39,195 nt of DNA from Escherichia phage JEP4: the sequence record MT740315.1. One strand, written 5' to 3'. Made by a program: the position numbers and the translations under genes. Below the pieces are notes generated by a model, which saw only the letters and a list, made by a program, of their open reading frames with translations, did no database searches and was not told the origin of the DNA. Below are positions 26,530-36,060 of the stretch, piece by piece. Position 1 is the stretch's first letter. Each line of letters opens with the position of its first letter.

Positions 26530-26662
26530 TTTTGGGAACTCCTGGCTGATTAAGTACGTCGATGAGTCGTTTCCATCCGTCACGTAATTTACGGGTGATT
26601 CGTTCAAGTAAAGATTCGGAAGGGCAGCCAGCAACAGGCCACCCTGCAATGGCATATTGCAT
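26522..26662 (-). CDS. cIII: CIII-like protease inhibitor (46 aa)
   Basis: MQYAIAGWPVAGCPSESLLERITRKLRDGWKRLIDVLNQPGVPKNG matches lambda CIII; ORF-track 26722 start is an extension. Confidence 0.75.
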   Translation of the reverse strand: MQYAIAGWPVAGCPSESLLERITRKLRDGWKRLIDVLNQPGVPKNG

Positions 26663-26722
26663 GGTGTGCTCCTTATTTATACATAACGAAAACGCCTCGA
26701 GTGAAGCGTTATTGGTATGCAT

Positions 26723-27426: not shown

Positions 27427-27699
27427 TTACCTCGCTGTCAGTTGTTTTGATTTCCGGTAGCCTGCCGCGTAAATGGCTACGTTTGGCAGGCAAATACTTC
27501 CACTGCATTCATCTGCCTTCTTGCAGCGAAGGCTTCCGAGTGATGCTGCTTTATCTGCCCTGACGCAACCAGAGAGCTTTAGCGCAATTTTTCGTGCCAA
27601 TCGCTGTTCTTGCATTGCCTGTTCACGTTGAGCCTGTCTGCGTGCTCTGCGGCGATTTCTGGCGTTATCGTCAGCCAGATATGTAATGACTACTGTCAT
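27427..27699 (-). CDS. N-like transcription antiterminator with arginine-rich motif
   Basis: N-terminal ARM NARNRRRARRQAQREQ; GGAGG SD; first gene leftward of PL; nut sites with matching boxB on both arms. Confidence 0.6.
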   Translation of the reverse strand: MTVVITYLADDNARNRRRARRQAQREQAMQEQRLARKIALKLSGCVRADKAASLGSLRCKKADECSGSICLPNVAIYAAGYRKSKQLTAR

Positions 27700-28980: not shown

Positions 28981-29038
28981 ATACAACGCGCATAAGTTGA
29001 TGCGCATAACTTCTTATTTGTTAAGGAAATACTTACAT

Positions 29039-29335
29039 ATGGTTCGTGCAAACAAACGCAACGAGGCTCTAAGAATCGAGAGTGCGTTGCTTAACAAAAT
29101 CGCAATGCTTGGAACTGAGAAGACAGCGGAAGCTGTGGGAGTTGATAAGTCGCAGATCAGCAGGTGGAAGAGGGACTGGATTCCAAAGTTCTCAATGCTG
29201 CTTGCTGTTCTTGAATGGGGTGTCGTTGACGACGACATGGCTCGATTGGCACGACAAGTTGCTTCGATTCTCACCAATAAAAAACGCCCGGTGTGCAAGA
29301 CCGAGCGTTCTGATCAAATACAAATGGAATTTTAA
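29039..29335 (+). CDS. c1: C1 (lambda CII-like) lysogeny activator
   Basis: MVRANKRNEALRIESALLNKIAMLGTEKTAEAVGVDKSQISRWKRDWIPKFSMLLAVLEWGVV matches P22 c1 as recalled; ORF-track start 28952 would place nutR inside the gene. Confidence 0.8.
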   Translation: MVRANKRNEALRIESALLNKIAMLGTEKTAEAVGVDKSQISRWKRDWIPKFSMLLAVLEWGVVDDDMARLARQVASILTNKKRPVCKTERSDQIQMEF

Positions 29336-29357
29336 CAACATCCAACGAGGTAATTAT

Positions 29358-29630
29358 ATGCGAAACAAAGGCTTTAATCCACCTGATACACACAAAGAAG
29401 CTAAGCGTTTGCGCTTCCTTCGTTCCATTGATGAAAGAACTCAAATCTCTTTTGTGAAAGTTGCCAGAACTGAGCTTCTGAAGGCTGAGGCGAGGGCGTT
29501 GCTCCCGTCTCTACCAAAAGAGGAGGGATATACGTTCATTCCAAACGCATTTCTGGAAAAGCTTCTCAAAGAAGACATATCCGTAAGTCAGTTTAACGAT
29601 GTTCTTAAGGTCTTTCGTCAAGGCAGGTAG
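29358..29630 (+). CDS. Hypothetical protein (90 aa) between c1 and replication initiator
   Basis: ATG 29358 with GAGG SD; MRNKGFNPPDTHKEAKRLRFLRSIDERTQISF. Confidence 0.5.
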   Translation: MRNKGFNPPDTHKEAKRLRFLRSIDERTQISFVKVARTELLKAEARALLPSLPKEEGYTFIPNAFLEKLLKEDISVSQFNDVLKVFRQGR

Positions 29631-29632
29631 TT

Positions 29633-30580
29633 ATGAGCAATACAGCAAAAATCTACGATTTCAGCGCCGCACACGAGCGCAGGAGCAACAGGATGGAGAA
29701 CCAGAAAACTGGTTACATTCCGTTGTACCGGAGCATTCTGAAACAGTCATGGGCGAAAGATGTTTATCTTCGCACCCTGTGGGAAAACCTTCTCCTGAAT
29801 GCCGCCAGAAAGCCATACAAAGCGAATTTCAAAGGTCATGAATGGCATCTGCAACCCGGTCAACTGGTTGTGACAGCAGCTGATTTAGGTCTTCAGTTAT
29901 GCGACAGGCATGGCAAGCCAGCAAGCCGCGATCAGGTTGAGCGGATGCTTCAGGTTTTTGTGAAAGAGGGGATGATCTCCATTGATGGAGAGAAGCAAAA
30001 AGGTCGTGTGATCACCATCACAAATTACCATGAATATGCTCAAAAAATGGACAATTCACCCGCACATGAATCCGCACAAACAACCGCACATGATGCCGCA
30101 CATGATGAAGCCAGTAATGGCGCGGCTTTCAGCGTACATGCCACACATGAAAGCGCACATGAAGCCGCACAAACAACCGCACATCATGAACAAGAAGGTA
30201 TTAACAAGAATATAAATAATACCCCCCTACCCCCCAATGGGGGAGGCGATGGGCAGGTTAAACCTGAACGTCGAAAGGCAGAACGCATCGACTACGAATC
30301 CTTCCTGAACGCCTACAACACCGAAGTCGGTGACAGACTTCCACATGCTGTTGCGGTCAACGAGAAACGCAAACGCCGCCTGAAGAAAATCATCCCGCAA
30401 CTGAAAACGCCAAACGTGGACGGTTTCAGAGCGTATGTCAGGGCGTTTGTGCATCAGGCCAAGCCGTTTTACTTCGGAGACAACGACACGGGCTGGACGG
30501 CAGATTTTGATTACCTGCTGAGGGAAGACTCGTTAACGGGAGTTCGGGAAGGGAAGTTTGCAGACAGGGGGATTGCATGA
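29633..30580 (+). CDS. Replication initiator, lambda O-like (P22 gene 18 position)
   Basis: 315 aa; gene contains the iteron array and AT-rich tract; repetitive AH-rich linker; followed by helicase. Confidence 0.8.
30058..30225. repeat. Origin of replication: iteron array (CCGCACATGATG-type repeats) plus AT-rich tract inside the initiator gene
   Basis: Tandem CCGCACATGATG x2; 24-mer CCGCACAAACAACCGCACAT(G/C)ATG present twice about 94 bp apart; followed by AACAAGAAGGTATTAACAAGAATATAAATAATA. Confidence 0.65.
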
Positions 30581-31953
30581 GACAGGATATCGAAGCGAGC
30601 GTTATCGGTGGCCTGCTGATTGGTGGATTAACACCAACCGCCAGCGACGTTCTGGCAACGCTGGAGCCGGAAGCGTTTTCAATTCCGCTCTACCGGAAAG
30701 CCTTCGAGGTTATCCGCAAGCAGGCGCGAAACAGAAACCTAATCGACGCGCTGATGGTTGCCGAGGCGTGCGGAGAGGAGCATTTCACGTCAATCCTGAT
30801 GACCAGCAAGAACTGCCCGAGTGCCGCAAACCTGAAGGGATATGCCGGAATGGTCGCGGATAACTATCACCGTCGTCTGGTGCTGGAAATCATGGATGAA
30901 ATGCGTGAACCAATTCAGAGCGGAACTATCGACGCATCGAGTCAGGCGATGGATGAACTTGTAAAGCGTCTTTCAGCCATCAGAAAGCCCCGTGACGAGG
31001 TAAAACCTGTACGGTTAGGGGAAATCATTACTGACTACACTGACACGCTTGACAGGCGTCTGAGGAACGGAGAAGAGTCAGATACCCTGAAGACCGGAAT
31101 CGAAGAACTTGACGCCATCACCGGAGGGATGAACGCAGAAGACCTGGTGATAATCGCTGCTCGTCCTGGTATGGGGAAAACCGAACTGGCTCTGAAGATT
31201 GCCGAAGGCGTTGCAAGCCGCGTTATTCCTGGTTCTGACGTCCGGCGCGGGGTATTGATTTTCTCGATGGAAATGAGCGCATTGCAGATTGCAGAGCGAA
31301 GCATTGCCAACGCCGGGAGGATGTCGGTTAGCGTACTGCGAAATCCTGCATCGATGGATGACGAGGGCTGGGCACGTGTTGCTAACGGCATGAGTCAGCT
31401 TGCAGATTTGGATGTATGGGTAGTCGATGCTTCGCGGTTATCGGTCGAAGAAATACGCTCAATCGCAGAACGGCATAAGCAGGAAAATCCAAACCTGTCA
31501 CTCATCATGGTGGATTATCTTGGCCTGATTGAGAAGCCGAAAGCAGATCGCAACGACCTCGCAATTGCTCACATCTCCGGAAGCCTGAAGGCGATGGCGA
31601 AAGACCTGAAAACACCGGTTATCTCCCTGAGTCAGCTTTCGCGCGATGTTGAGAAGCGACCAAACAAACGCCCGACAAACGCAGATTTGCGTGATTCAGG
31701 AAGCATTGAACAGGACGCAGACTCAATCATCATGCTCTATCGGGAAGCGGTATATGACGAGAACAGTAGCGCCGCGCCATTTGCTGAAATCATCGTGACG
31801 AAAAACCGTTTTGGCTCACTTGGTACGGTTTACCAGCGGTTCTGCAACGGACACTTTGTTGCATGTGACCAGGATGAAGCCAGACAGATTTGCACAGCAT
31901 CAAATGCACCTGCTGCGCGTGGCAGACGATATGCACAAGGGGCGGACGTATGA
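30577..31953 (+). CDS. Replicative DNA helicase, DnaB-like (P22 gene 12 position)
   Basis: 458 aa; Walker [13 protein letters not shown], Walker B-like IMVDYLGL, typical DnaB C-terminal domain motifs. Confidence 0.9.
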
Positions 31954-31978
31954 CCATCTACATCACTGAGCTAATAAC

Positions 31979-32010
31979 AGGCCTGCTGGTAATCGCAGGC
32001 CTTTTTATTT
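31979..32010 (+). terminator. Rho-independent terminator between helicase and nin region (tR2-like)
   Basis: AGGCCTGC-tggtaatc-GCAGGCCT followed by TTTTTATTT. Confidence 0.65.
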
Positions 32011-32026
32011 GGGGGAGAGGGAAGTC

Positions 32027-32467
32027 ATGAAAAAACTAACCTTTGAAATTCGATCTCCAGCACATCAGCAAAACGCTATTCACGCAGTACAGCAAATCCT
32101 TCCAGACCCAACCAAACCAATCGTAGTAACCATTCAGGAACGCAACCGCAGCTTAGACCAAAACCGAAAGCTTTGGGCTTGCTTAGGTGACGTCTCTCGT
32201 CAGGTTGAATGGCATGGTCGCTGGCTGGATGCAGAAAGCTGGAAGTGTGTGTTTACCGCAGCATTAAAGCAGCAGGATGTTGTTCCTAACCTTGCCGGGA
32301 ATGGCTTTGTGGTAATAGGCCAGTCAACCAGCAGGATGCGTGTAAGCGAATTTGCGGAGCTATTAGAGCTTATACAGGCATTCGGTACAGAGCGTGGCGT
32401 TAAGTGGTCAGACGAAGCGCGACTGGCTCTCGAATGGAAAGCGCGATGGGGAGACAGGGCGGCATGA
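32027..32467 (+). CDS. ninB: NinB (Orf recombination mediator)
   Basis: [55 protein letters not shown] matches lambda NinB as recalled; GGAGAGGGAAG SD. Confidence 0.9.
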
Positions 32468-32640
32468 GACGACAGCGACGAAGTATCACCGACATCATCT
32501 GCGAAAACTGCAAATACCTTCCAACGAAACGCTCCAGAAATAAACGCAAGCCAATCCCAAAAGAATCTGACGTAAAAACCTTCAACTACACGGCTCACCT
32601 GTGGGATATCCGGTGGCTAAGACATCGTGCGAGGAAATGA
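32464..32640 (+). CDS. ninD: NinD
   Basis: [58 protein letters not shown], lambda NinD-like; overlaps ninB stop. Confidence 0.8.
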
Positions 32641-33026
32641 CAATGGATTATTCACAGTTAAGTGATTTTGAAATTAACGTGGCGGTATTCGAAGCCATTC
32701 ATAACGGATCACCGGATTACAAAGAAGGTGAGAATGGCGATATGGTGTTTGTCTCATTTGAGGGAGACATTGTAAACGGAGACGCAGTTGAAGTAGAAGT
32801 TGAGCGCGGTTCCTTTAACCCATGCGCAAACCCAGCAGACGCATGGCCGATTATCACTGAAAACAACATCAGCATAATTTTAGACAATCCCTCAATGCCG
32901 TGCGCTACAGACAACGCAAGGGACTTGTTTGATGATGCCGGACCGAATGTTGGTGTCGCATATGACAATCCACTCCGTGCCGCCATGATTGTCTTTCTCA
33001 TGATGCAGGACGCCAATAATGCTTAG
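32637..33026 (+). CDS. Hypothetical nin-region protein (about 129 aa)
   Basis: ORF in the ninE slot but about twice the length of lambda NinE; ATGA overlap with ninD. Confidence 0.55.
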
Positions 33027-33195
33027 CCCATCCCAATCCCTTCAATACCAGAAAGAAAGCGTCGAGCGGGCTTTAACGTGCGCTAACTGCGGTCAGAAGC
33101 TGCATGTGCTGGAAGTTCACGTGTGTGAGCACTGCTGTGCAGAACTGATGAGCGATCCGAATAGCTCAATGTACGAGGAAGAAGACGATGAATGA
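33019..33195 (+). CDS. ninF: NinF (58 aa; below ORF-track cutoff)
   Basis: Read directly: [58 protein letters not shown], matching lambda NinF as recalled. Confidence 0.8.
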   Translation: MLSPSQSLQYQKESVERALTCANCGQKLHVLEVHVCEHCCAELMSDPNSSMYEEEDDE

Positions 33196-33913
33196 GTTAA
33201 TAAATGGCAACGCCATCAAAATGACAAGCATTGAAATCGCTGAGTTGGTAGAAAGCCGCCATAGCAATGTAAAAGTATCCATAGATAGATTGGTGAAACG
33301 TGGCGTTATCAAGCCTCCTGCATTGCAGCACACTAACATAATCAATGATTTAGGTGTTATTACCGGGAAGCGTTATTTCTACGTCTTCGAAGGCGAACAA
33401 GGTAAGCGCGACAGCATTATTGTCGTCGCTCAGTTGTCGCCGGAATTCACCGCTCGTCTTGTTGACCGTTGGCGAGAGCTTGAAGAAGCTGCGGTTAATA
33501 TCCCCAAAACGCTACCAGAAGCGTTGCGCCTTGCTGCTGATCTTGCTGAGCAGAAAATGCAACTGGAAAACCAGCTCGCAATTGCCGCACCTAAAGTTGA
33601 GTTTGCCGATCGCGTTGGCGAGGCCAGCGGAATTTTGATTGGAAACTTTGCAAAGGTTGTTGGAATTGGTCCAAACAAACTGTTTGCGTGGATGCGCGAT
33701 CACAAAATCCTTATTGCTTCAGGTTCCCGGCGCAATGTGCCAATGCAGGAATATATGGATCGCGGCTATTTCACAGTGAAAGAAACAGCGGTCAACACAA
33801 ATCACGGAATACAGATATCGTTCACCACAAAAATCACCGGGCGTGGTCAACAGTGGCTGACCAGAAAGCTGCTCGATAACGGAATGCTGAAAGTAACAGG
33901 GGAGGCTGCTTAA
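33188..33913 (+). CDS. Rha/ANT-type antirepressor-like regulatory protein (Roi-like) in nin region
   Basis: N-terminal Rha-like segment MTSIEIAELVESRHSNVKVSIDRLVKRG; C-terminal ANT-like segment; domain names from recalled family patterns. Confidence 0.7.
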   Translation: MNELINGNAIKMTSIEIAELVESRHSNVKVSIDRLVKRGVIKPPALQHTNIINDLGVITGKRYFYVFEGEQGKRDSIIVVAQLSPEFTARLVDRWRELEEAAVNIPKTLPEALRLAADLAEQKMQLENQLAIAAPKVEFADRVGEASGILIGNFAKVVGIGPNKLFAWMRDHKILIASGSRRNVPMQEYMDRGYFTVKETAVNTNHGIQISFTTKITGRGQQWLTRKLLDNGMLKVTGEAA

Positions 33914-34203
33914 TGGCTAACCTACGCAAAGAAGCGCGCGGCAGAGAATGCCAGGTTCGTATTTACGGCATATGCAATGGTAATCCTGAAACTACAGTTC
34001 TGGCACATTACCGGATGGCTGGAATTTGCGGAACGGGAATGAAGCCTGACGACCTGATCGGTGCATGGGCTTGTAGCGCGTGTCACGATGAAATCGACCG
34101 ACGCACCCATAACCTCGACAACAAAGACGCCAGACTTTACCACCTCGAAGGCGTGATCAGGACGCAGGCGATACTGCTGAAGGAGGGGAAGATTAAGTCA
34201 TGA
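33913..34203 (+). CDS. Cys-rich DUF1364/YbcO-like protein
   Basis: 96 aa with CQVRIYGIC...CGTG...CSACH cysteine pattern; common neighbour of rusA in lambdoid nin regions. Confidence 0.55.
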   Translation: MANLRKEARGRECQVRIYGICNGNPETTVLAHYRMAGICGTGMKPDDLIGAWACSACHDEIDRRTHNLDNKDARLYHLEGVIRTQAILLKEGKIKS

Positions 34204-34595
34204 AAACCTACCGAATAAAATTGCCGTGGCCTCCTTCAAACAACCGATATTGGCGACACTCAAGAGGGATCCACTACATCAGCGACTGGGGGAAGAGATA
34301 CCAAGAAGAAGTAATCGAATTAATCCAGCAACAACAGCTAGACATCAAAATCACACCTCGCATCAGAATAACCATCCACGCAGCACCTCCCGATAACCGC
34401 AAACGAGATTTGGACAATCTGCCAAAAGCCGTTTTTGACGCACTCACCAGTGCGGGCTTCTGGCTGGATGACGGTCAGATAGACGATATGCGCGTCATTC
34501 GCTATCAGGCGATTAAAGGCGGAATGCTTTTGTTGGTTGTGACTGAAACATGCGGCAGTTTGCCAATGATTACAGAGCTACTGGAGGCCGCATGA
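34200..34595 (+). CDS. rusA: RusA Holliday-junction resolvase
   Basis: MKTYRIKLPWPPSNNRYWRH...RKRDLDNLPKAVFDALTSAGFWLDDGQIDDMRV matches RusA motifs (PWPPS(N)NRY, DLDN, FWLDD). Confidence 0.85.
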   Translation: MKTYRIKLPWPPSNNRYWRHSRGIHYISDWGKRYQEEVIELIQQQQLDIKITPRIRITIHAAPPDNRKRDLDNLPKAVFDALTSAGFWLDDGQIDDMRVIRYQAIKGGMLLLVVTETCGSLPMITELLEAA

Positions 34596-34798
34596 CGTTC
34601 TCAGTAAAAAACATTCCAGACATGCTCGTTGAAGCATACGGAAACCAGACAGAAGTAGCACGCAGACTGAAATGTAGTCGCGGCACGGTCAGAAAATACG
34701 TTGATGATAAAGACGGGAAAATGCACGCCATCGTCAACGACGTTCTCATGGTTCATCGCGGATGGAGTGAAAGAGATGCGCTATTACGAAAGAATTGA
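34592..34798 (+). CDS. ninH: NinH
   Basis: [68 protein letters not shown], lambda NinH-like. Confidence 0.8.
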
Positions 34799-35447
34799 TG
34801 GCAGCAAATACCGGAATATTTGGGTAGTTGGCGATCTGCACGGATGCTACACGAACCTGATGAAAAAACTGGAGACGATAGGATTCGACATCAAAAAAGA
34901 CCTGCTTATCTCGGTTGGCGATTTGGTCGATCGCGGTACAGAGAACGTCGAATGCCTGGAATTAATCACATTCCCCTGGTTCAGAGCTGTACGTGGAAAC
35001 CATGAGCACATGATGATTGATGGCTTATCAGAGCGTGGAAACGTCAATCACTGGCTGCTTAATGGCGGTGTCTGGTTCTTTAATCTCGATTACGACAAAG
35101 AAATTCTGGCTAAAGCTCTTGCCCATAAAGCAGAAGAACTTCCGTTAATCATCGAACTGGTGAGCAAAGGTAAAAAATATGTCATCTGCCACGCCGATTA
35201 TCCTTGTGACGAATACGAATTTGGAAAGCCAGTTGATCATCAGCAGGTAATCTGGAACCGCGAACGAATCAGCAACTCACAAGACGGGATCGTGAAAGAA
35301 ATTAAAGGCGCGGACACGTTTATCTTTGGTCATACGCCAGCAGTGAAACCACTTAAATTTGCCAACCAAATGTATATCGATACCGGCGCAGTGTTCTGCG
35401 GAAACCTCACATTGATTCAGGTACAGGGAGAAGGCGCGTGGGCATAA
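34776..35447 (+). CDS. Ser/Thr protein phosphatase (lambda NinI/PPase-type)
   Basis: Metallophosphatase motifs GDLHGC, GDLVDRG, GNHE; matches lambda phosphatase as recalled. Confidence 0.9.
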
Positions 35448-35926
35448 GAGAACTAAACCTCACCAAAGAACAGCATGAGTGGCTGAATGGCTGGCTTGAA
35501 CTGTGGGGCGCATGGGTTTATTCAGGTCGTCTGGAAAAGCGCATGAGCAGCGTAATAGCGAAGTTCATGGAGAGCGTAGAGCCGGGAAGAGTTATGACAA
35601 GGCCAATGTGCAATGATGATGATGGAATGTTGATTTCTCAGGTCGTCGATTCCGTCATGTGCATTGACAAGAAAGCCTTTGGCATCCTCCTCAGCTACTA
35701 CGCCCACGGTTCTTCCAAGCACGCCATTGCATCTTACTATCATCGCGTCGCAAGACCTCGCAAGATGTTATGCCGGGGCGGCGGGCGCATTCAAAAACCA
35801 TCGCTCGCAACCTGTCGTCGGGAAGTTGACGAAATCCTCAATGCCTCGTTGTTTATGATTTACCCGGTTCTGGATAGTGCGTTTAAAAACCGGAAACGTG
35901 TAGAGAAAATTAAACATGTAGCGTAG
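35438..35926 (+). CDS. Late-gene antiterminator Q (non-lambda, phage-82/QuuD-like family)
   Basis: GTG start with GGGAGAAGG SD; WLELWGAWV and [10 protein letters not shown] resemble recalled QuuD (WGAW, RPQCCDDDAM); sits directly upstream of late promoter region and lysis genes. Confidence 0.65.
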
Positions 35927-36060
35927 AACGTGTTGACATCATTGAGCAAATGAGCAACACTATTCGCATAAGCTGCCGTTAGTGACTCTTAAGTTGCAAC
36001 GGTGGCTTTTTTTGTTTGCACAACAGGTAAGAGCATTGAACCCGCAGACCTCGCGGAATT
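35927..36060 (+). promoter_or_regulatory. Late promoter (PR-prime-like) and Q-utilisation region; exact -10/-35 not resolved
   Basis: TTGACA at 35933 directly after Q; weak hairpin with T7 run (TGGCTTTTTTTG) near 36000; position by analogy with lambdoid late control. Confidence 0.3.

Follow-up and report, generated by a model that had tools for sequence, protein, structure and literature searches.

The terminator tR2 of phage lambda has been a textbook case for decades and is among the most studied intrinsic terminators, and N-mediated antitermination is known to override it. The small ORF ninA has carried its name since the early 1980s (Kröger & Hobom 1982, according to the citations in PMC4824070 and PMC8022706). 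In lambda, the ninA-tR2 cassette is placed between ren, which ends at 40570, and NinB, which starts at 40644, and the RefSeq record of this phage leaves ninA unannotated. In P22 (X78401, 2346-2426; BK000583, 34673-34753), the ORF is annotated as ninA and the hairpin as a terminator, labelled 'terminator tR2' in X78401, and the genes follow the order gene 12 helicase, ninA and ninB, joined by ATGA overlaps. We found no published function of NinA in the literature, and a full-text literature search for the peptide string 'MTIYITEL' returned no paper.

We analysed a window of 39,195 nucleotides from Escherichia phage JEP4 (MT740315.1). Judged by its sequence, the feature at 31950-32030 is the lambdoid ninA-tR2 cassette, which has already been described for lambda and P22, and no discovery is made here. 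The order of the pR operon in the window is O-like gene, DnaB helicase, cassette and NinB, and the relevant features are the following.

27427-27699, minus strand: homologue of N-type antiterminators (Pfam N_peptide, E=1.1e-15)
29633-30580: O-like gene
30577-31953, plus strand: DnaB-type replicative helicase of the P22 gene 12 type, from the ORF list (Pfam DnaB_C, E=8.7e-79; DnaB, E=4.5e-13)
31937-31942, plus strand: Shine-Dalgarno-like AAGGGG inside the helicase CDS, 7 nt 5' of the ninA ATG
31950-32030, plus strand: ninA, a 26-codon ORF with an ATGA overlap at each end, read directly from the sequence
31979-32002, plus strand: tR2 hairpin, with the 5' arm at 31979-31986, the loop at 31987-31994 and the 3' arm at 31995-32002
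32003-32010, plus strand: tR2 U-tract TTTTATTT, which together with T32002 gives TTTTTATTT
32011-32021, plus strand: ninB Shine-Dalgarno region GGGGGAGAGGG, which doubles as ninA codons 21-24
32027-32467, plus strand: ninB, the recombination mediator Orf/NinB (Pfam NinB, E=1.1e-54)

The helicase ORF ends with GTA TGA, and its stop codon (31951-31953) overlaps the ATG of ninA in the first ATGA (31950-31953). The second ATGA (32027-32030) joins the ninA stop (TGA, 32028-32030) to the ATG of ninB, which begins at 32027. Overlaps of this type at both ends of ninA are present also in P22 and lambda. An earlier note on this DNA had described a 26-codon ORF that opens at the helicase stop and runs through a hairpin, and an 8-bp hairpin with a T-run separating the replication genes from ninB. 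Both descriptions are confirmed, the former by the coordinates 31950-32030 and the ATGA overlap, the latter by the terminator scan (31979-32002) and the Pfam assignments of the flanking genes. The note was right that the mini-ORF exists and failed to recognise in it the named P22/lambda gene ninA.

The alignment of 31950-32030 with lambda 40567-40647 showed 80 of 81 nucleotides to be the same and the peptide to be identical. The lone mismatch is in codon 5 (ATC/ATT) and is synonymous. The two phages share the peptide, the hairpin, the U-tract, the ninB Shine-Dalgarno sequence, both ATGA overlaps and the position in the pR operon. They differ in the upstream gene (ren in lambda, a DnaB-type helicase in the window) and in the four nucleotides before the ATGA together with the Shine-Dalgarno sequence (TATGGAG... 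in lambda and CAAGGGG... here). P22 has the same hairpin and T-run but differs at 6 nucleotides in the ORF, 4 synonymous and 2 replacing (Ile9Val and Ser26Thr), so that 24 of 26 residues of the peptide are the same. When the window, lambda, P22 and ST104 were aligned, the run from the ATGA through the hairpin, the T-run and the Shine-Dalgarno sequence into ninB was invariant.

The peptide matched phrog_5907 (E=1.6e-19), residues 1-26 aligning with profile positions 1-26 of 27, and the Pfam search gave no family for any form of NinA. We recovered the cassette from 411 phage records and from 2059 of 5426 complete E. coli genomes, and 80 viral contigs carry ninB copies that are 100% identical. 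In E. coli prophages, identical copies of the helicase bear the RefSeq name 'replicative DNA helicase'.

The hairpin recognised by the terminator scan, AGGCCTGC/TGGTAATC/GCAGGCCT, consists of 8 pairs, 6 of them G-C, and a loop of 8; the U-tract given above comes next. A 45-nt piece containing it folds at -16.7 kcal/mol (z = -3.08), and 2 of 200 shuffles were equally stable. A simple terminator pattern found 8 sites in the 7-kb region where 7.2 are expected, which is not above chance; we take the site as real because it matches lambda tR2 and is conserved across hundreds of phages. Since hairpin and T-run are identical to those of lambda, the wording 'tR2-like' in the earlier note was correct regarding the terminator and understated the relationship: on the evidence of the alignment, the hairpin and U-tract are lambda tR2 itself, the intrinsic terminator of the early rightward (pR) operon. 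That E. coli RNA polymerase would terminate here is taken from the literature on the identical lambda sequence. Termination at lambda tR2 is reported at U7/U8 (bioRxiv 10.64898/2026.05.29.728758); by lambda numbering, these release sites would correspond to 32008-32009, in codon 20 of ninA. When 31930-32050 was folded, the MFE and centroid structures alike contained the terminator hairpin.

The comparative set comprised 326 cassette copies from phages and prophages. These were gathered by DNA patterns, which for part of the sample fixed some of the positions. Among the 326 copies, the terminator stem comes out as the most constrained part of the cassette. In the copies whose collection pattern left the stem open to variation, its 16 positions showed a single variant, the synonymous GGC>GGT, in which a G-U pair is retained; for comparison, the 27 nt of codons 2-10 contained 10 variants. 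It is at 32011-32021, the Shine-Dalgarno region of ninB, that the various downstream modules are attached to the cassette.

HK97 gp56 and the 'ninA' of CUS-3 represent an alternative allele, with which the lambda/P22 type shares the first 10 codons, the upstream contexts and the PHROG family. A hairpin and T-run fill the corresponding 22-nt slot without closing the frame. However, the stem-loop is different (GGGCTATT/TACAC/AGTAGCCC), the ORF has 26-32 codons and another tail, and the next gene is gp60-like, not ninB. The HK97-type hairpin folds at -17.2 kcal/mol (z = -4.9), and one variant contains a compensatory change from U-A to C-G. Because the two types of hairpin are offset by one position, which precludes column-wise scoring of covariation, we report them as a functional replacement. 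Some ninB loci seemed to be without the cassette; these turned out to be HK97-type, with the order type-B cassette, gp60, ninB.

Regarding the role of the cassette, we consider it probable that ninA acts as a translated linker which hands ribosomes to ninB. In our reading ninA is translated, as suggested by the conserved Shine-Dalgarno sequence, start and frame, by the synonymous bias and by the activity of the lambda-sequence start in a reporter. In this scheme, tR2 would halt RNA polymerase unmodified by the N-type antiterminator, so that neither the nin genes nor the late-gene activator would be expressed before N acts. On antiterminated mRNA, ribosomes that have completed the helicase, or that bind at the nearby Shine-Dalgarno sequence, would cross the terminator sequence. 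In the nin region, where ATGA chaining is typical (PMC8022706), ninA is the first link of a 'chain of interlinked genes'. The ninA ribosomes would stop right on the ninB start, so translation could be passed over an otherwise untranslated, structured spacer. Coupling via ninA may nevertheless be dispensable for the expression of ninB, because ninB owns a strong Shine-Dalgarno sequence, GGGGGAGAGGG. Transcripts ending at tR2, in codon 20, would carry a ninA without a stop codon; such RNAs would be non-stop messages, dependent on ribosome rescue and less stable. We infer both the hand-over (coupling) role and the non-stop consequences in a real infection.

For the native lambda sequence, Li et al. 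(NAR 2016, PMC4824070) describe the NinA initiation site as 'not weak', and on NinA translation the same paper cites a lambda ribosome-profiling study (Liu et al. 2013). In their reporter, the NinA start halved the upstream output, mutation of the RBS or of the AUG restored it, and the authors ascribed the loss to non-stop mRNA. This result could also mean that the ORF mainly loads ribosomes on tR2-ended RNAs, which would then be passed to tmRNA-SmpB and degraded faster, so that the output of the replication genes from transcripts made without N would be lowered. The putative release sites in codon 20 of 26 agree with such a function, and lambda-P22 hybrid phages need rescue by trans-translation for reasons 'not understood' (PMC2862035). 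We find this explanation quite unlikely, as a reporter does not reproduce an infection, only the immP22 hybrid shows the tmRNA dependence, whose link to ninA is conjecture, and the position of the ORF stop at the start of the next gene is left unexplained. Moreover, lambda has the same cassette and is not reported to need tmRNA. In a broader version, ninA would be a selected small coding gene that co-evolved with the terminator embedded in its own codons and has a dual output. The N-antiterminated mRNA would yield the 26-residue hydrophobic peptide and hand ribosomes to ninB, and the tR2-terminated RNA would present a non-stop ORF to tmRNA and thus give a shorter-lived early replication transcript. 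This would link N antitermination, trans-translation and the dosage of replication genes, and we regard it as distinctly improbable.

The earlier note called the ORF 'probably incidental'. If this were so, selection would act only on the terminator and perhaps on a conserved recombination 'linker' sequence at a module boundary; the open frame, the hydrophobic peptide and the ATGA ends would be by-products, and translation would be irrelevant. Several observations agree with an accident. The cassette is near-identical in nucleotides between otherwise unrelated neighbours, as predicted for a recombination linker, and much of the peptide follows from the stem and T-run (GGC CTG..., GCA GGC C, and CTT TTT ATT, which reads Leu-Phe-Ile). 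Changes in the loop are non-synonymous, including Leu13-to-Gln in 14 copies, located inside the hydrophobic stretch. RefSeq/PGAP leaves the ORF unannotated in lambda and E. coli, and frameshifts or early stops occasionally break the frame (about 10 of 326 copies; e.g. a ...GSHEKTNL tail, TGG>TGA at codon 21, or TAG in HK97-type copies).

However, other comparative observations speak against an accident. Each upstream gene tail among the 326 copies contains a GGAG, GGAGG or AGGGG core 6-8 nt 5' of the ATG despite unrelated coding sequences, and at least seven different upstream genes supply this core together with the overlapping stop. The frame is open over 20-34 codons in nearly all copies. 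In 15 of the 16 downstream gene classes, the ninA stop lies between 23 nt inside and 6 nt before the next start, and nine classes display classic overlaps (ATGA, GTGA, GTGGCTGA, ATGGTTAA and TAAATG). When the junction variants, whose classes are not fully independent, were examined in all three frames, a stop near the start was present in 34 of 37 for the ninA frame and in 18 of 37 and 11 of 37 for the other two. Because the copies are very similar and were surely spread by recombination, there are few independent evolutionary events behind these statistics.

The substitutions also have a third-position periodicity. In codons 2-10, where the test of synonymous changes was restricted to loci not selected on the ninA region, we counted 8 changes that were synonymous and 5 that were conservative, while every second position was unchanged (P about 0.007-0.017). 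The whole ORF gave 12 synonymous to 8 non-synonymous changes, a count that is partly biased by the way the sample was collected. The HK97-type allele keeps the frame with a different hairpin, and the NinA start is active in the published reporter (PMC4824070). With start, RBS, open frame and stop placement kept across many flanking genes, an accidental origin of the ORF seems rather improbable to us, and the comparison does not bear out the label 'probably incidental'. A contig scan with an N-terminal pattern added little to the sample, since it returned mostly random matches and lambda contamination, and only few informative prophages (Escherichia sp. E1V33, E. albertii and Shimwellia).

Conservation of the frame could reflect the peptide itself, which would then be a functional small membrane peptide with one short hydrophobic helix, its sequence being important to the phage or the lysogen. 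The changes in codons 2-10 are mostly synonymous or conservative, residues I3-W21 are hydrophobic and are followed by a basic tail, and the peptide has its own PHROG family spanning the lambda/P22 and HK97 types. The HK97-type allele is still uncharged and hydrophobic and keeps Gly11, Leu18, Phe19 and Trp21. On the other hand, the stem and T-run account for half of the hydrophobic sequence, and the conserved C-terminal residues follow from the G-rich start of the stem, the U-tract and the TGG after the U-tract. The change Leu13Gln is common, and the tails vary freely with the downstream junction (GRGKS, GRVNRG, GRGKCG, GRVIGGFKK, GGEK). The literature describes the nin region as not required for growth, and HK022-type phages have an interrupted ninA. 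We therefore judge a sequence-dependent membrane function to be unlikely.

The situation in HK022-type phages deserves a separate description. Their 34-codon form looked like an independent hydrophobic NinA allele lacking a terminator, which would have favoured a function of the peptide, but it is really a ninA cut by an HNH endonuclease gene, with an intact tR2 hairpin just downstream. Where uninterrupted, the ninA/tR2 sequence reads …GAGCTAATAACAGGCCTGCTGG…, and the HK022 counterpart carries the HNH gene. Phages with the split ninA are viable, which, together with the roughly 10 broken frames among the 326 copies, speaks against ninA as a translated linker.

As a discovery, the cassette matters little. 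The comparative data favour ninA as a translated linker over noise, and automated pipelines (PGAP/RefSeq) miss the ORF even though more than two thousand complete E. coli genomes contain the cassette. The result concerns anyone who builds with tR2 as a 'part' and leaves the native flanks on, since a translation start in those flanks is active.

Among the known systems, leader-peptide attenuators such as pyrBI and trp share with the cassette a short translated ORF that is physically tied to an intrinsic terminator. The earlier note had accordingly suggested a 'translation-coupled attenuator', in which ribosomes on ninA, following the polymerase, would block the tR2 hairpin, and the level of translation would tune read-through into the nin genes. 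The geometry permits this, with the hairpin inside the ORF and its first base 29 nt downstream of the A of the start codon. Since the helicase gene upstream spans 1.4 kb, the polymerase might reach the site with the leading ribosome not far behind. Ribosomes near tR2 do repress it strongly when a stop codon is placed a few bp upstream (PMC4824070). However, in the test on the lambda sequence, silencing of the NinA RBS or AUG changed the efficiency of tR2 by only ~10%, and the helicase stop precedes the hairpin by 25 nt, which is close to the spacing of >27 nt at which a terminating ribosome ceases to interfere (PMC4824070). Neither the MFE nor the centroid fold of 31930-32050 contained a competing antiterminator helix using the hairpin arms, and runs of regulatory codons are absent from the peptide. 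The sole Rfam match, Trp_leader, scored 17.3 bits where 41 are required (E = 0.91) and is at the level of chance. The suggestion is thus weakly supported at best, and we consider attenuation very unlikely. Compared with pyrBI and trp, the cassette has no alternative antiterminator, regulatory codons or sensing logic, translation of NinA had only a small measured influence on tR2, and the known control of tR2 is antitermination by N.

Sequence reading and a consensus terminator scan showed the hairpin that the earlier note described, an 8-bp stem plus T-run before ninB, exactly as claimed. The 26-codon frame from an ATG overlapping the helicase stop and through the hairpin was confirmed by sequence reading. 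The features concerned, from Pfam searches and a direct reading of 31700-32300, are as follows.

30577-31953, + strand: DnaB-type helicase ORF, 458 aa, ending ...GAC GTA TGA (Pfam)
31950-32030, + strand: ninA mini-ORF, 26 codons (direct reading)
31979-32002, + strand: inverted repeat inside ninA, AGGCCTGC-TGGTAATC-GCAGGCCT, then TTTTATTT
27427-27699, - strand: N-type antiterminator (Pfam)

The ninA ATG (31950) shares TG with the helicase stop, forming ATGA, and its TGA (32028-32030) makes a second ATGA with the start codon at 32027, where the next gene begins, again through a common TG. The hairpin has 8 pairs, 6 of them G-C, and a loop of 8 in the consensus scan, and the 45-nt piece containing it folds at -16.7 kcal/mol (z = -3.08). 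The scan returned 8 terminator-like sites in 29000-36000 vs 7.2 in shuffles, with no excess, so the terminator pattern alone is weak evidence and the case depends on identity with lambda and P22 and on the comparative data.

By Pfam, ninA is flanked by the helicase and NinB genes, an O-like initiator lies upstream of the helicase, and NinX, an antirepressor-type protein, RusA and a phosphoesterase are encoded downstream. Similarity of the window is highest to E. coli P22-like/lambdoid phages, e.g. CUS-3 and Gally. The only Rfam family over threshold in the whole window was Lambda_thermo, the cIII mRNA thermoregulator, at 26617-26675 (-) with 88.5 bits (gathering score 50). [quoted passage not shown]

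Using megablast, 31850-32130 matched 411 phage records. In P22 the counterpart 81-nt ORF is annotated as ninA, and the hairpin as 'inverted repeat; terminator tR2' (X78401) or 'terminator, L2; similar to phage lambda' (BK000583). The lambda record has 73 nt without an annotated gene from the end of ren (40570) to the NinB start (40644). Aligning the window, P22, lambda and ST104, we found that homology begins exactly at the ATGA and continues across the hairpin, T-run and Shine-Dalgarno (SD) element into ninB; therefore lambda has a ninA ORF whose start overlaps the end of ren (40567-40647). One synonymous base separates it from the window ORF, and peptide, hairpin and U-tract are identical. 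Judged by this sequence identity, the hairpin is lambda tR2 proper and the mini-ORF is ninA; 'tR2-like' was correct as to the kind of terminator and understated the relationship.

The NinA peptide matches PHROGs phrog_5907, a family of unknown function (E=1.6e-19), and Pfam has no family for it. The ORF has an annotation in the P22, CUS-3, HK97 and HK022 records; RefSeq/PGAP has no annotation at ninA in the lambda record (NC_001416 40567-40647) or in E. coli genomes. The cassette, i.e. the ORF with its embedded hairpin and U-tract, occurs in 2059 of the 5426 complete E. coli genomes. Contigs of unrelated taxa also contain the ren-ninA-ninB junction of lambda, recognisable by ATT at codon 5, which is specific to lambda; these taxa include Pseudomonas, Oceanobacillus, Bradyrhizobium, Psychrobacter, Pseudoxanthomonas, Shewanella, Nocardioides, Paenibacillus and Chromatium (comparison loci L206, L220, L222, L223, L226, L227, L229, L231, L232, L234, L235, L245, L247 and L249). 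Coverage is ~1x in many of them, and they are almost certainly lambda DNA contamination of assemblies.

Loci for comparison were sampled by NinB, by the hairpin with the loop left free, by ninA codons 1-7 with any base allowed at third positions (in species-representative genomes), and by the ninA N-terminus plus any sequence except the canonical stem. A fuzzy search across the loci of all four routes gave 326 ninA copies. The frame is open over 20-34 codons in nearly all of them; a frameshift or premature stop occurs in about 10, and in one copy ninA continues in frame into the next gene as a fusion. Upstream of the cassette we found at least seven different gene tails, including ren, two helicase variants and ST104 orf30, which represent fewer than seven independent cases because some tails look distantly related. 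[quoted passage not shown] Downstream there are 16 different genes, joined via several junction sequences. In 15 of these 16 classes the position of the ninA stop ranges from 23 nt inside the next gene to 6 nt ahead of its start; nine classes have classic overlaps (ATGA, GTGA, GTGGCTGA, ATGGTTAA, TAAATG). Among 37 junction variants, stops near the next start number 34 in the ninA frame vs 18 and 11 in the other frames.

Changes in codons 2-10, counted solely in loci whose sampling did not use that region, were 8 synonymous and 5 conservative (I/V, L/I, I/M, T/A), with none at a second position. The expected synonymous share is ~26-30% (P ~0.007-0.017); scored in the frame of the helicase, they would be 1 synonymous and 12 non-synonymous.

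The most constrained part of the cassette is the terminator. The 16 stem positions show a single variant, GGC>GGT, with pairing preserved as G-U; apart from it, third-codon positions in the stem do not vary. There are two non-synonymous variants in the loop, Leu13Gln (14 copies) and Val14Ile, and the ninA tail and SD vary freely. NinA could possibly be a membrane peptide with a function of its own. The stem and U-tract dictate much of its hydrophobic C-terminal half, Leu13Gln is common among copies, and the tail differs with each downstream junction.

Many phages carry an alternative allele, in which codons 1-10 are kept and the next 22 nt are replaced, and others an interrupted ninA.

L372 (HK97) 1201-1299 and L029 2223-2321: alternative allele; also many loci sampled by the ninA N-terminus with a non-canonical stem
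L371 (HK022, AF069308) 1501-2220: interrupted ninA; also Stx2a phages, PA28 and SH2026Stx1

HK97 (gp56) and CUS-3 (annotated ninA) are carriers of the alternative allele. Its unrelated hairpin, GGGCTATT-TACAC-AGTAGCCC followed by TTTTTTATT, folds at -17.2 kcal/mol (z = -4.9), and the frame stays open, encoding an uncharged, hydrophobic peptide; therefore hairpin function and frame are both kept despite the different sequence. In one variant (L257) the stem has a compensatory change from U-A to C-G, and ninA is fused in frame with a 109-aa ORF downstream. HK022_56 and several Stx phages were rejected as a terminator-free hydrophobic allele, as their ninA is interrupted by an endonuclease insert. 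In this HK022-type form, ~660 nt encoding a 203-aa HNH_3 + AP2 endonuclease follow about codon 10; the truncated ninA frame extends 23 nt into the endonuclease start, and the endonuclease TAA directly abuts an intact tR2 hairpin. Because it is an interrupted ninA, this form is uninformative on peptide function. The insert has the appearance of a homing endonuclease gene of the free-standing kind, targeting the ultra-conserved ninA/tR2 sequence.

Lambda tR2 terminates efficiently, with an efficiency in vivo set by how near a translating ribosome can approach: it is almost fully repressed with a stop codon a few bp upstream and maximal beyond ~27-30 nt (PMC4824070). In the window the helicase stop lies 25 nt 5′ of the hairpin; ribosomes that terminate at this stop are expected to have little effect on tR2. 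The NinA initiation site within the native lambda upstream sequence is 'not weak', and this start halves the output of an upstream reporter, which the authors explain by non-stop mRNA; mutating the NinA RBS or AUG restored output and altered tR2 efficiency by only ~10% (PMC4824070). Considering the conserved SD, start, frame and stop placement and the start active in the reporter, the earlier view of the mini-ORF as probably incidental is probably wrong. The other proposal, a translation-coupled attenuator, is disfavoured: the published ~10% effect of silencing the NinA start in lambda sequence (PMC4824070) is largely negative for it, folding gave no structure competing with the terminator hairpin, and the Rfam Trp_leader match at 31937-32008 (+) is at chance level (17.3 bits against a threshold of 41, E = 0.91), reflects only a generic 'short ORF plus terminator' shape and is not attenuator evidence.

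From the published reporter results and the comparative data, we propose that tR2 blocks unmodified polymerase. In lambda, an N-type antiterminator overrides tR2. In this account ninA would be translated, and on read-through mRNA it would take ribosomes over the terminator sequence and let them go on the ninB start. On terminated RNA, the geometry makes ninA a non-stop ORF, which may have consequences in infection. The tmRNA dependence of lambda-immP22 hybrids is unexplained (PMC2862035). A link to ninA is tempting. However, lambda shares the cassette and is not known to have this dependence.

As cited in PMC4824070 and PMC8022706, Kröger and Hobom (1982) placed ninA first in a 'chain of interlinked genes'. 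The tR2 hairpin string is present in the methods of 15 papers, e.g. in a transcription template (PMC7430646), and work on lambda tR2 continues, where it is called 'the classic' terminator and its release sites are U7/U8 (bioRxiv 10.64898/2026.05.29.728758); by identity, these sites would correspond to 32008-32009 in the window, within ninA codon 20. The feature is real but already known, and is annotated in P22 as ninA and tR2.
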